A DNA stretch of 64,000 nucleotides from the NCBI GenBank assembly GCA_963820735.1, contig CAWGBA010000004.1:131579-195578 (forward strand), given 5' to 3'. Shown in pieces: positions 50,586 through 55,456 of the stretch. Position 1 is the first letter of the stretch, and each line of letters starts with the position of its first letter. The DNA comes from an uncultured Chloroflexia bacterium. Its GTDB lineage: Bacteria > Chloroflexota > Limnocylindria > Limnocylindrales > CSP1-4. Below the pieces are notes generated by a model. That model was not told where the DNA came from, searched no databases, and was given only the letters and a program-made list of their open reading frames with translations. The translations under genes and the position numbers were made by a program.

Positions 50586-53255
50586 CTAGCGGGGATGCGC
50601 GTGGGTGCCGCCGAACCCGTTGCCGGCGCCGTTCCCATGCCCGTGCCCATCCGCCGACCCGTGCCCGTTCCCGGACACTGCCGCGTTCGCCGCCAGCGGG
50701 CTCGACGCCACGGCCGCCGACACGGCACCCGGCGGCAGCATCGGAAGCATCCGCCCGGACGGAACGCCGCGACCGTTTGCCGAGGCTCGGGTGGCCCAGT
50801 CGCGCTCGCGGCGGACGTAGCTGATCTCGGTGTCTTGATCCATGGCGCTGATCGCCATCAGGTCGATCATCGGGTCGGCGCGGCTCTCGTGGCTGAGCTC
50901 GAAGTCGGGGCCGCAGCGAAGCGCGTCGTACGGGCACGCGTCCACGCAGATGCCGCAGAGGATGCAACGGCTCTCGTCGACGTCGTACTTCTCGAGCACG
51001 CGCGGCTTGGGCATCAGGGCGCCGGTCGGGCACGTCTCCGCGCAACGGCCGCACGAGACGCACGGCGTGGTGTTGAGGCTCATGTCGAGCGGCGTCGTGA
51101 CCAGGGTGTCGAAGCCAGTCCGCATGAAGTCGTAGCAGGCCGCGCCGACGACTTCCTTGCACACGTTTGCGCAGCGGCCGCAGTCGATGCAGCGCGACGG
51201 CTCGCGAAGGATGAACGCGTGCGAGTCGTCGCGGATGTAGTCGTGGTTGATGCCGGTGAAGCGGTTCTCGTCGACGCTGCGGTGGCTGAAGCCACTGCGT
51301 TCCGGCTCGAGCGTGCGCAGCGTGGTCCCGTATTCGATGCCCTGGCGGCGTAGGTCGCAGTAGCCGATCGCCTCGCAGGTGCACTGCAGGCAGCGGCCGG
51401 ACTCGGCCATCGCCTCGGCCTGCGTGTAGGGAATCTCGTACTCGATGTAGCTCGCGTTGCGCACCTCGGCCGGCATCGCCTTCAGGCGCAGGCGCGGCTC
51501 TTTGACCTCGCCGGTGAAGGGCACGATCGAGAGGAACTCGGGCTGCGGCTCGGCAAGCGTTTGGCGGGTGCGGATCGCTTGGAGATCCTGGCCCTTGAGG
51601 TACGCATCCACGGCGTAGGCGGCACGTCGCCCCTCGGCGACCGCCTGAACCACGGTCGCCGCGCCGACCCGCACGTCACCCGTTCCGAAGACGCCCGGGC
51701 GACCCGTCGCGAAGGTGACGGCATCAGCCACGAGTCGACCCCGGTTGGCGGTGACGCCATCGGCGCCGCGGTTGAGCCACGCCAACTCCGGCCCCTGGCC
51801 GATGGCCAGCAGCACGCGGTCGCAATCGATCACGAACTCTGTGCCCGCCATCGGCTCGGGCCGGCGGCGTCCGGAGGCATCCGGCGCGCCGAGCTTCATG
51901 CGCTGGAATTCGACGCCGGTGACCTTGTTGTTCGCGTCTGTCACGACCCTCGTCGGGGCCGCCTGGAAGATCGCGCGAGCGCCCTCCTCGATCGCCTCGT
52001 GCACCTCGTTGGCCGCGGGCATGTCCTTCATGTCGCGGCGGTAGACGAGCGTGACCTCCTTGGCACCCTGCCGGATGGAGGTCCTGGTGCAGTCCATGGA
52101 GGTGAAGCCGCCGCCGATCACGACAACGCGCTTGCCGGCGTGGCCCGGGTACGGCAGGCCAAGCGTCGCGATGCGCAGATACTCGAGGCCGTCGAGCACA
52201 CCCTCGGCGTCTTCGCCCGGGACGCCCAGCTTGTTGGTGTCGTAGCAGCCGATCGCGATGCAGACGGCGTCGAAGCCGCGGTTCTGCAGGTCGTCGAGCG
52301 TGTAGTCGCGGCCCAGTGCTGCGTTGCCCTGGAACTTGACGCCCAGGTCCCAGGCCGACTGGTACTCACCCTCGAGCACCTCGACCTTGGGCAGGCGGTA
52401 CTGCGGAATGCCGTAGCGCAGCATCCCGCCCGGCGCCGGGTCGCGTTCGAAGACCGTGACATCGTGGCCGGAGATCGCCAGGTAGTAGGCGGCCGACATA
52501 CCCGCCGGGCCGGAGCCGATCACGGCGACCTGCCGCCCGGACGTGGGCTGCAGCTCGAACGGGACCGGCGCCTTTGTGCCGTTGGCCTGCGCGCGGAGCA
52601 CTTGATCGCCGGCGTAGCGGTGGCTGTCGCGGATCGCGATCGCCTCCTCGACCTCGTCGCGGCGGCAGTGCTCCTCGCACGGTGCCGGGCAGACGCGGCC
52701 GAGCACGGAGGGGAACGGGATCGTGCGCTTGAAGATGCGCGCCGACTCGACGAAGTTGCCCTCCGTGTTGGCCTTCAGGAAGCCCGGGATGTCGATGTGC
52801 GACGGGCACTTGTTCTGGCACGGCGGCAGGCAGTAGGCGTTGTGGTCGCTGAAGATCAGCTCGAGGTTGGTCTTTCGGATCTGGCGCAGGCGCGGCGTTT
52901 GCGTGCGCACGACCATGTCGGGCTCGGCCTCGCGCGAGCAACTGATCGGCGGGGTTCCTTCGCCATCGACTTCGACCACGCACATGCGGCAGGCGCCGAA
53001 GCCGGGCAGCTTGGGCTCGTAGCAGAGCGTGGGGACCTCGACGCCGTTGTCGCGGCAGACCTCCAGGATCGTCTGGCCTTCTCGGCCCGTGACGGTTCGC
53101 CCGTCGATCTCGATCGTGAATGTCTGCGAGGCGATGCGACGCTGCGGGCTCTGCGTGACCAGGCGTGCCTCGGCGATCGCGTCCGGGGCAGCCGGATTCA
53201 CCGCCAGCGTGGCGTCCGAGGCGGCCGTTCGTTGCTGGGGCAAGGTGTCAGTCAT
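50586..53255 (-). CDS. Multidomain Fe-S flavoprotein: NuoG-type [2Fe-2S] N-terminus, GltD-like NAD(P)H oxidoreductase, NuoG/hydrogenase-type [4Fe-4S] domains, then the C-terminal half of NuoI
   Basis: aa ~45-125: [19 protein letters not shown]..SC (2Fe-2S). aa ~140-560: [64 protein letters not shown] (GltD/NfnB-like). aa ~620-750: [41 protein letters not shown]. aa ~755-800: [40 protein letters not shown]. His/Gly/Asn-rich tail. Confidence 0.75.
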   Translation of the reverse strand: [889 protein letters not shown]

Positions 53256-53258
53256 GAC

Positions 53259-54614: not shown

Positions 54615-54616
54615 GG

Positions 54617-55456
54617 CTAGGCGATGCCCCCCTGGGCGACGTGAGCGCGGAGTCCCGCCGAGATCACGATGGCATCATCGACGGTCGCCCGCGGCAGGGC
54701 CTGCCCATCCACCTCGACGCGTGGCGTTCCGGTGGCCGTGCCTCGGCAGTCGGTCTGCTCGAGGCGCACGGCGCCGTCCGGGCTCACGCCACCGACGTCA
54801 GTGCCCAGGTGCTCGCGGAACGCGGCAAGGATCCGGCCGCTGCCAAGGACCGCGCACGTGGCGCAGCGACAGACACGCACGACGTGGGTGCTCGGCGGCT
54901 CGAACTGCAGGTGCGGGTACGAGGTGGCGATGCCATACAGCTCCGAGTACCACGCGCCCGTCTGGTGCGCCACGTGCTGCAGCGCTGCAACCGGCAGGTG
55001 CCCGTAGGCTGCTTGGGCGCCTTCGAGGATCTGGACCGCTCGCTTCGGGTCGTAGTCCTCTCGAGCGAGCACGGCGTCTAGCGGGCCGAGATCGATCGGC
55101 TCGAAGGGATCGAAGCTGCGGTCCGGGACCGGCCGCCCCGAGCGGCGCAACGCGGACTCCTCGCGGCGCTCGTCGTATTGCTCGGCCGGACCCCAGTGGA
55201 TGTGGAAGCGGTTCTTCGTATCGACGCCACCCATGTCGATGCACTCGATGGGGCATGCCGCGGCGCACTGGAAGCAGGTCTCGCACTTGAGCGCGCCGTA
55301 CTCGTCGTAGAGCAGCAGCAGCCGGCCTCGATGCTTGGGCGCGATCGGCTGGACGACCTCGGGGTACTGCACCGTGATCTTGGGCTGGACGAGGCGCGTG
55401 AACGTGAGCATGAAGCCCTTCACGATGCCGAGCCCGGGAATGCGATCGGCGCGCAT
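54617..55456 (-). CDS. Fusion: N-terminal half of NuoI (one 4Fe-4S motif) joined to a NuoE-like thioredoxin-fold domain
   Basis: ATG 55456 shares one nucleotide with the nuoH stop (TGATG overlap). The N-terminus MRADRIPGLGIVKGFMLTFTRLVQPKITVQYPE..KHRGRLLLL..KCETCFQCAAACPIECI is NuoI-like. The C-terminus LPVAALQHVAHQTG..YGIATSYPHLQF..VVRVCRCATCAVLG..DGAVRLEQTDCRGTATGTPRV is NuoE-like. Confidence 0.7.
   Translation of the reverse strand: MRADRIPGLGIVKGFMLTFTRLVQPKITVQYPEVVQPIAPKHRGRLLLLYDEYGALKCETCFQCAAACPIECIDMGGVDTKNRFHIHWGPAEQYDERREESALRRSGRPVPDRSFDPFEPIDLGPLDAVLAREDYDPKRAVQILEGAQAAYGHLPVAALQHVAHQTGAWYSELYGIATSYPHLQFEPPSTHVVRVCRCATCAVLGSGRILAAFREHLGTDVGGVSPDGAVRLEQTDCRGTATGTPRVEVDGQALPRATVDDAIVISAGLRAHVAQGGIA

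Follow-up and report, generated by a model that had tools for sequence, protein, structure and literature searches.

A Limnocylindria complex I operon in which nuoI is split around a cassette resembling Stn/NfnABC transhydrogenases

Few enzymes have been studied as closely as complex I, and its core is usually described as 14 separate subunits, or as including fusions of whole subunits such as NuoCD and NuoBCD. How, then, could a complex I be built if one of its iron-sulfur (Fe-S) subunits were cut within its fold and the two pieces were carried by different proteins? This question is raised by a nuo operon on a 64,000-nucleotide stretch of DNA (the window) from an uncultured Chloroflexia bacterium (GTDB lineage Chloroflexota; Limnocylindria; Limnocylindrales; CSP1-4; assembly GCA_963820735.1, contig CAWGBA010000004.1, positions 131,579 to 195,578 of the forward strand). 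On its minus strand the genes run nuoA-B-C-D-H-P1-P2-P3-J-K-L-M-N, where P1 is a fusion of the N-terminal half of NuoI with a NuoE-like domain, P2 is NuoF-like, and P3 joins a [2Fe-2S] domain, a GltD-like flavin adenine dinucleotide (FAD)/NADPH module and a 2x[4Fe-4S] domain to the C-terminal half of NuoI. We consider it probable that the operon encodes a functional, proton-pumping NAD(P)H:quinone oxidoreductase of the complex I type, the input module of which comes from a Stn/NfnABC-type cassette lying inside nuoI and docks by means of the split NuoI.

Profile searches assigned residues 14-80 of P1 to positions 1-66 of the 121-position NuoI model TIGR01971, and residues 752-796 of P3 to positions 71-115. 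Each half carries one CxxCxxCxxxCP motif, which in P1 reads CETCFQCAAACP (55250-55285; C58, C61, C64 and C68-P) and in P3 comprises C764, C767, C770 and C774-P (50931-50966). When the halves were scanned separately against NCBIfam, NuoI families took the best nine places for the N-half and the best six for the C-half. The TIGR01971 scores were additive: the halves scored 48.7 and 44.9 bits, and their artificial concatenation scored 93.3 bits over positions 1-116 in a single stretch. The concatenated halves also aligned as one domain with residues 17-149 of the 163-residue Paracoccus subunit (8qby_I; expect value, E, 8e-20), as well as with M. smegmatis 8e9g_I and with plant and mammalian TYKY, and the best 16 PDB matches were all NuoI or TYKY. 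In these alignments, the break falls in the inter-motif loop, immediately ahead of the strand that precedes motif 2. With NuoI profiles ranking first for each half, the terminal segments of P1 and P3 are NuoI-specific, and a generic ferredoxin identity is ruled out.

A preliminary description of this DNA, made from the letters and translated open reading frames (ORFs), had read 54617..55456 as a NuoI N terminus with the first motif alone, running into a NuoE-like domain, and had located the break in the loop between the cluster motifs; the profile and domain scans bear out the former and the alignment to NuoI and TYKY chains the latter. It had also confined the second motif to 50586..53255, which holds, and had placed it at the end of that ORF, which needs correcting, as ~95 residues of P3 lie C-terminal to the motif.

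In 2x[4Fe-4S] ferredoxin folds, each motif supplies three Cys to one cluster and the Cys of its Cys-Pro pair to the other. Since a single motif cannot complete a cluster and, apart from those of the motif, the first Cys of P1 is C196, neither NuoI cluster should be completable by P1 without P3, or by P3 without P1. The eight NuoI cluster Cys are invariant over the two proteins taken together, four in 79/79 P1 sequences and four in 56/56 P3 sequences, and the remaining cluster Cys of both proteins are invariant in the same sets. A second CxxCxxCxxxCP motif is present in none of the 79 P1 family members. The 64-kb window contains three such motifs in any frame, and no nuoI/E/F/G-like sequence other than those described here was found in it. 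An intact nuoI, with both motifs in one polypeptide, was found neither in the window nor between nuoH and nuoJ in any related locus. In an AlphaFold2 (AF2) model of P1 alone, built on a shallow alignment, the NuoE domain was confident and the NuoI N-half was unstructured (predicted local distance difference test score, pLDDT, <50), which lends weak support to a half-fold that needs a partner.

We further compared the proteins lying between the NuoI halves with known redox modules. The preliminary description of a NuoE/F/G-like insert stands as to position; as to type, the module is not canonical NuoEFG. Among enzymes of solved structure it is nearest to the Stn/NfnABC (Bfu-family) transhydrogenases, and it carries an NADPH/FAD domain. 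Residues 47-773 of P3 match NfnA 9bov_A (E 3e-164) and StnC 8oh5_C (E 5e-149), and also NfnA 9n5u_A, in an alignment that spans just the first ~700 of the 1172-1178 residues of the StnC/NfnA chains. The GltD-like module of P3 contains two [4Fe-4S] sites and the FAD and NADPH Rossmann folds (GSGPAGM... and GGGFTSMD...VYRR), and its PDB matches are NfnA, StnC, NfnB and GltD; the FAD and NADPH motifs are invariant, including Y405-R406-R407, and so are the cluster Cys of the connector that follows. P3 had been described as simply NuoG-like, a view that has to be abandoned, as the GltD-type domain is inserted and the molybdopterin-like C-terminal domain of NuoG is missing. In StnC/NfnA, the position at which the NuoI C-half of P3 begins is occupied by the first cluster motif of their molybdopterin-like domain. 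We note that the C-terminal tail of P3 is Gly/His/Asn-rich, of low complexity and variable in length.

P2 and the NuoE-like domain of P1 (residues 127-263 in the domain scan, of the NuoE/HoxE thioredoxin-like [2Fe-2S] type) show similar affinities. P2 scored 352-378 bits against HydB, NfnB and StnB structures versus 245-274 bits against NuoF of complex I, and its 349 bits against the NuoF equivalog lie below the cut-off of 559. It aligns solely to the cores of Bfu B subunits, for example residues 139-539 of the 599 of HydB, and the cluster/Zn domains (B2-B5) that flank those cores on the N-terminal and C-terminal sides are missing from it; Pfam found no Fer4 or N-terminal 2Fe-2S domain in it. 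A remnant at its C terminus, 'HI..CPAGVC', is retained (H428, C434 and C439). The closest PDB matches of the NuoE-like domain are StnA (8oh5_A, the best), NfnC and HydC. Between this domain and the NuoI N-half, linker residues 85-112 (55121-55204) form the most conserved stretch of P1, with a median identity of 89.3% to the window protein across related loci, the measure of conservation used throughout, and the first part of the linker aligns with the inter-motif loop of M. smegmatis NuoI. The conservation of this segment exceeds that of both neighbouring domains, so it probably has a structural or contact role and does not merely tether them.

The cassette sits in an operon that is otherwise ordinary for complex I (Table 1). 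All seven membrane subunits (NuoA, H, J, K, L, M and N) are present, in order, together with NuoB, C and D of the Q-module, and since NuoB, D, H and L exceed their curated NCBIfam cut-offs, the Q- and P-modules are best taken as those of a regular complex I. The stop codon of nuoH overlaps the start codon of P1 by 1 nt (TGATG), and the spacers at P1/P2, P2/P3 and P3/nuoJ are 2, 3 and 3 nt, so these junctions look translationally coupled. Profiles thus confirmed the nuo gene order of the preliminary description, apart from a small ORF that it had included between nuoD and nuoH: no conserved counterpart of this 50-codon ORF (56850-57002) exists, nuoD and nuoH lie 0 nt apart in most relatives, and the ORF is probably spurious. 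The ORF listed for nuoD extends farther upstream than the gene given here, and the NF004739 match begins at about residue 206 of the long ORF. NuoH is unusually long, with a profile match in two stretches, and NuoB has an N-terminal extension of ~84 residues; both features are kept in close relatives.

Table 1. Features of the nuo operon in the window, with the median identity of each to its counterparts in related loci
Feature	Coordinates	Strand	Supporting match	Median identity
nuoA	59688..60047	-	Pfam Oxidored_q4, E 4.5e-32	
nuoB (N2-cluster subunit)	58946..59683	-	TIGR01957, 213 bits vs cut-off 142.7	80%
nuoC	58235..58858	-	TIGR01961, E 6.5e-33	
nuoD, 366 residues	57015..58115	-	NF004739, 419.8 bits vs cut-off 360	83%
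nuoH, 465 residues	55456..56853	-	NF004741, 308.6 bits vs cut-off 305	
P1, fusion NuoI N-half::linker::NuoE/BfuC-like [2Fe-2S], 279 residues	54617..55456	-		66%
P1 residues 10-84, NuoI N-half	55205..55429	-	TIGR01971 positions 1-66 of 121	73%
P1 residues 85-125, linker	55082..55204	-		
P1 residues 126-265, NuoE/BfuC-like thioredoxin-like [2Fe-2S] domain	54662..55081	-	PF01257, E 7.7e-26	60%
P2, NuoF/BfuB-core-like FMN/NADH subunit, 451 residues	53259..54614	-	Pfam Complex1_51K, SLBB, NADH_4Fe-4S	60.5%
P3, fusion [2Fe-2S]::GltD-like FAD/NADPH::Fe-S domains::NuoI C-half, 889 residues	50586..53255	-		83%
P3 residues 45-137, N-terminal [2Fe-2S] domain, NuoG/HydA/HoxU type	52845..53123	-	PF13510, E 9e-21	
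P3 residues 138-560, GltD/NfnB-like module	51576..52844	-	PF14691, PF07992; PRK12814, E 9e-162	93.5% (N-terminal cluster region)
P3 residues 561-670, connector with cluster motif C622-x2-C625-x-C627-x5-C633	51246..51575	-	aligns with StnC/NfnA CLECGC...C	
P3 residues 671-751, NuoG/HydA-type 2x[4Fe-4S] domain	51003..51245	-	PF22117, Fer4	98.8%
P3 residues 752-843, NuoI C-half with NuoI-type C-terminal segment	50727..51002	-	TIGR01971 positions 71-116 of 121	89.8%
P3 C-terminal tail	50589..50726	-		22%
nuoJ	49926..50582	-	profile match	
nuoK	49615..49929	-	profile match	81%
nuoL	47587..49611	-	NF005141, 725 bits vs cut-off 556	
nuoM	45957..47627	-	Pfam Proton_antipo_M	
nuoN	44423..45955	-	Pfam Proton_antipo_M	

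To the other side of nuoN, Pfam domains were seen for a trehalose-phosphatase (ORF 43320-44426, plus strand), a myo-inositol-1-phosphate synthase (37103-38452, minus strand), a lipid A acyltransferase-like protein with a PHP domain (34220-36112, minus strand) and a PMT-family glycosyltransferase, the last within a 1622-codon ORF (27156-32024, plus strand). An amino-acid permease domain lies near the 3' end of a plus-strand ORF (59547-61787) that runs antiparallel to nuoA.

The arrangement is widely shared. A genome scan for the P1 family, with one genome per species, returned at least 543 confirmed matches, from which 80 loci were kept; the preliminary description had proposed a search of related genomes for the same synteny, and all 80 loci retrieved show B-C-D-H-P1-P2-P3-J-K-L-M-N on one strand. 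The labels of most of these genomes read Chloroflexota or Candidatus Limnocylindria/Limnocylindrales, with CSP1-4 among them, and the carrier lineages occur in soil, freshwater and sediment metagenomes. The database holds 2839 relatives of P1, the best 120 of which are nearly all 279 residues long and 68-95% identical to it, and the best 120 relatives of P3 are all at least 80% identical. The 2x[4Fe-4S] domain of P3 is the most conserved stretch of the whole operon, and P3 as a whole equals NuoD in conservation (83% each). Given this regional pattern of identity (Table 1), constraint is greatest along the route that leads from the NADPH/FAD site via P3 to NuoI and weakest in the arm with NADH and flavin mononucleotide (FMN).

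When 1.84 billion cluster representatives were searched exhaustively, true full-length distant fusions emerged at 27-38% identity (P0272, P0334, P0354 and P0391), which lie in the context nuoA-B-C-D-H-[fusion]-F-like-large subunit; five further candidates (P0291, P0270, P0257, P0304 and P0331) were discarded as frameshifted translations. In one such locus (L082), the large subunit again combines a [2Fe-2S] domain, a GltD-like module, a 2x[4Fe-4S] domain and the NuoI C-half. Proteins 29-35% identical to P1 define a second family, represented by at least 110 metagenome loci in a scan with P0334 and by at least 1095 protein clusters (examples at about 10001-15000 in each of L087, L105, L109, L132, L135 and L148). 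In every locus of this family long enough to cover the operon completely, the order is nuoA-B-C-D-H-[NuoI N-half::E]-[full Bfu-type B]-[2Fe-2S-GltD-fer-NuoI C-half]-J-K-L-M-N. Its B subunit keeps both extra domains, the N-terminal one and, at the C terminus, the 2x[4Fe-4S] (ferredoxin-side) one, and its NuoE-like domain retains the canonical [2Fe-2S] motif; the sole organism name seen was that of a Thermoleophilia metagenome-assembled genome. The family in the window looks like a reduced derivative that has shed the ferredoxin-side domains of B, if the direction of change is as we infer.

The split is not limited to nuo operons. In a soluble variant linked to pyruvate:ferredoxin oxidoreductase (POR), found at L084 (1804-7726) and L085 (2251-7783) with the fusion P0347, the order is porD-porA-[half-NuoI-like::E]-[full BfuB]-large subunit, and the large subunit reads 2Fe-2S-GltD-2x4Fe4S-NuoI C-half-like-TPP/PorB-like (TPP, thiamine pyrophosphate). 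Both NuoI-like pieces match NuoI first. The split ferredoxin thus appears to travel with the cassette, and in this variant it appears also to join the module to pyruvate:ferredoxin oxidoreductase. Taken together, these data point to an arrangement that is real, conserved and widespread, which recurs in a second lineage and also, linked to POR, in a soluble setting.

Compared with the canonical 14-subunit complex I (Nuo/Nqo; T. thermophilus 4HEA, M. smegmatis 8E9G), the enzyme encoded in the window has in common the seven membrane subunits and NuoB, C and D, and also the NuoI motifs, an FMN/NADH core of the NuoF type, a [2Fe-2S] domain of the NuoE type and the N-terminal Fe-S domains of NuoG. 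It differs in that NuoI is divided between two polypeptides, the genes for the E-F-G-like proteins interrupt nuoI instead of lying between nuoD and nuoH, a GltD-type insertion is present and the molybdopterin-like domain of NuoG is not, and the F- and E-like proteins are nearer to Bfu B and C. With Stn/NfnABC (Sporomusa ovata 8OH5; C. saccharolyticus 9BOV; 9N5U), it shares the three-gene layout of E-like, F-like and large subunit and, over ~700 alignable residues of the latter, the order [2Fe-2S], GltD-like FAD/NADPH, CxxCxC...C, 2x[4Fe-4S]. Unlike those soluble enzymes, it has the NuoI C-half in place of the FdhF/molybdopterin-like domain, an E-like subunit that bears the NuoI N-half, a B subunit without the N-terminal and C-terminal (ferredoxin-side) domains, and genes embedded in a nuo operon. 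The 11-subunit enzymes (NDH-1, Fpo and NUO11) have the order A-B-C-D-H-I-J-K-L-M-N, which is the operon of the window minus the cassette, but their NuoI is intact and they use ferredoxin or F420 via other adaptor subunits.

Among published arrangements, a close one is Nuo-Bfu, predicted by Schut et al. (2022; PMC9304861) in Geobacter, Deferribacteres, Planctomycetes and Nitrospirae, with 14 subunits A-N and a full BfuB. This is likewise a complex I with a Bfu-like input module instead of canonical NuoEFG; the words 'NuoI' and 'GltD' are absent from that paper, so neither a split NuoI nor a GltD domain is mentioned, and the truncated P2 of the window would fail its domain criteria for BfuB. A different arrangement is that of Mbx-like operons, in which gltD-related flavoproteins replace NuoI (Degli Esposti 2015; PMC4758237). 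The available portions of the 2023-2025 Stn/NfnABC structure papers discuss domain shuffling in the large subunit, and in those portions no link to complex I or split NuoI was seen. In the literature that we searched, a limited full-text collection, neither a split NuoI nor a complex I N-module with a GltD domain was found to be described.

The domain identities, the split, the conservation of every ligand, the synteny and the distribution are shown by the data above; physical complementation of the halves, the electron path, the substrates used and proton pumping are matters that we infer, as follows. The preliminary description held that the two fusion proteins would have to complement each other to rebuild the N6a/N6b subunit, tethering the input module to the Q-module connector, and this interpretation is supported in its essentials. 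Motif 1 of P1 would give three Cys to one [4Fe-4S] cluster and its Cys-Pro Cys to the other, with motif 2 of P3 doing the converse, and N6a and N6b would form only once P1 and P3 meet on the Q-module. The shared clusters and fold would then dock the input module in place of the absent molybdopterin-like domain of NuoG. Two entry sites are predicted, one for NADPH at the FAD of the GltD-like domain of P3 and one for NADH at the FMN of P2, and the electrons would converge in the Fe-S chain of P3, leave it by a former dead-end branch and pass over N6a/N6b and N2 (NuoB) to quinone, driving proton pumping. In Stn, according to Kumar et al. (PMC10482914), electrons follow a linear chain from FAD to FMN, and clusters C1/C2, on the side of the FdhF-like domain, make up a branch off this chain that is not functional; by analogy, this branch may have become the exit toward N6a/N6b, N2 and quinone. 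Because P2 lacks the ferredoxin-reducing domains, bifurcation is unlikely in the lineage of the window, and its version is most likely non-bifurcating. As for origin, the gene order seen here is what would be expected if a cassette of E-like, F-like and large-subunit genes had been inserted in frame into nuoI, at the loop between its two motifs, in an operon of the order A-B-C-D-H-I-J-K-L-M-N, and we suggest that this was its history.

Several observations weigh against the reading of a dual-entry complex I with a complementing NuoI. At 93.3 bits, the joined NuoI halves stay below the curated TIGR01971 cut-off of 113, as does each half by itself, and the single-chain AF2 model of P3 was unusable (pLDDT 43.7). 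The [2Fe-2S] motif of P1 is non-canonical, VC-R-C-xx-C ... C-R-G, without the usual CxxxC second pair (54746-54871, residues 196-237). No other protein of the operon is as little conserved as P2, with the median identity of 60.5% given above, and the second Cys of its N3/B1 motif (canonically SCGxCxPCR; residue 361, 53532-53534) is Thr in the window; of 68 sequences, 48 have Thr at this position, 6 have Ser and 14 have Cys. This pattern suggests either that one ligand of the cluster is not a Cys or that the cluster itself has changed, and because P2 is so little conserved and the Cys is replaced in 54/68, the NADH branch may be modified or weakened. Carried to its end, the same evidence would describe a complex I that uses NADPH only, with the GltD-like FAD site as the sole physiological entry and with P2 and the NuoE-like domain as structural or regulatory leftovers of the ancestral cassette: P3 is strongly constrained (83%; 93-99% in the Fe-S domains), P2 and the NuoE-like domain (60%) are the fastest-evolving parts of the operon, the canonical N3/B1 Cys is lost in most members, and the NuoE cluster motif is non-canonical. 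Against this account, the FMN loop of P2 (GLRGRGGAGYPTGRKW), its GEET motif and the other three N3 Cys are conserved within the family, the NuoE-like domain has four invariant Cys (C196, C198, C201 and C237; the C1 site), and every locus retains P2, and we regard it as unlikely. The system might instead redistribute reducing power, as a built-in NADH/NADPH transhydrogenase (FMN to FAD) or by reverse flow from quinol to NADPH driven by the proton-motive force, and relatives with a full Bfu B could then be true bifurcating or confurcating four-substrate enzymes. The entire FAD-to-FMN chain of Stn/NfnABC is indeed kept with invariant ligands, the second family keeps the ferredoxin-side domains of BfuB, and there are counterparts of all three parts of the B1-FMN-C1 site, the minimal bifurcation site proposed for Bfu enzymes (PMC11829005). 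But neither the B3/B4 ferredoxin-side domain nor the N-terminal domain is present in P2 of the window, the ligands of B1 and C1 are altered, and quinone is a high-potential acceptor, so that NAD(P)H oxidation needs no bifurcation; we think this account quite unlikely.

A different doubt concerns the halves themselves, which might not complement each other at all and might persist as independent single-cluster or cluster-less remnants, the complex being served by a normal NuoI encoded elsewhere. The search for an intact nuoI covered the window and the related operon loci only, and the score of the joined halves lies below the NuoI cut-off; yet in this fold one CxxCxxCxxxCP motif is not enough for a complete cluster, the stretch of P1 ahead of residue 196 offers no Cys besides those of the motif, NuoI-specific flanks and all of the Cys are preserved in both halves, nuoI is missing from its usual place between nuoH and nuoJ in both families, and the halves in P1 and P3 always co-occur, which together make this very unlikely. 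Finally, a sequencing or assembly artefact or a pseudogene is exceedingly improbable. The preliminary description had called for a check of misassembly at the junctions; identical gene boundaries recur in hundreds of independent short-read and long-read assemblies, the reading frames are intact, and purifying selection is strong, while conservation of the P1 family and synteny rule out a frameshift or misassembly. A dual-entry, split-NuoI complex I hence remains the reading that we prefer.

If this reading is true, a core Fe-S subunit split within its fold, with two clusters ligated by two proteins, would be a new assembly principle for complex I, and complementation through shared clusters would substitute for the NuoG C-terminal domain as the dock of the input module. 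The GltD-type domain predicts that NADPH is coupled directly to quinone and proton pumping, which bears on the NADH/NADPH balance of the carriers. Public annotations name relatives of P1 and P3 'NuoE', 'FAD-dependent oxidoreductase' or 'formate dehydrogenase major subunit', and with such names pathway surveys could score these genomes as lacking NuoI and NuoG. Three forms, the soluble one linked to POR, the nuo-linked one that retains a full Bfu B and the reduced one of Limnocylindria, make up a series of concrete and testable intermediates for the old problem of how the NADH-oxidizing module came to be attached to an 11-subunit ancestor. More tentatively, and as something possible rather than probable, the [4Fe-4S]-bridged split subunit may be a portable docking clasp that fits a Nfn/Stn-type NAD(P)H module into different partners; the complex I of the lineage in the window would then oxidize NADPH directly or make NADPH by reverse flow, that of the second family would handle NADH, NADPH, ferredoxin and quinone, and the layout would record the capture of an N-module by an 11-subunit ancestor via insertion into nuoI.

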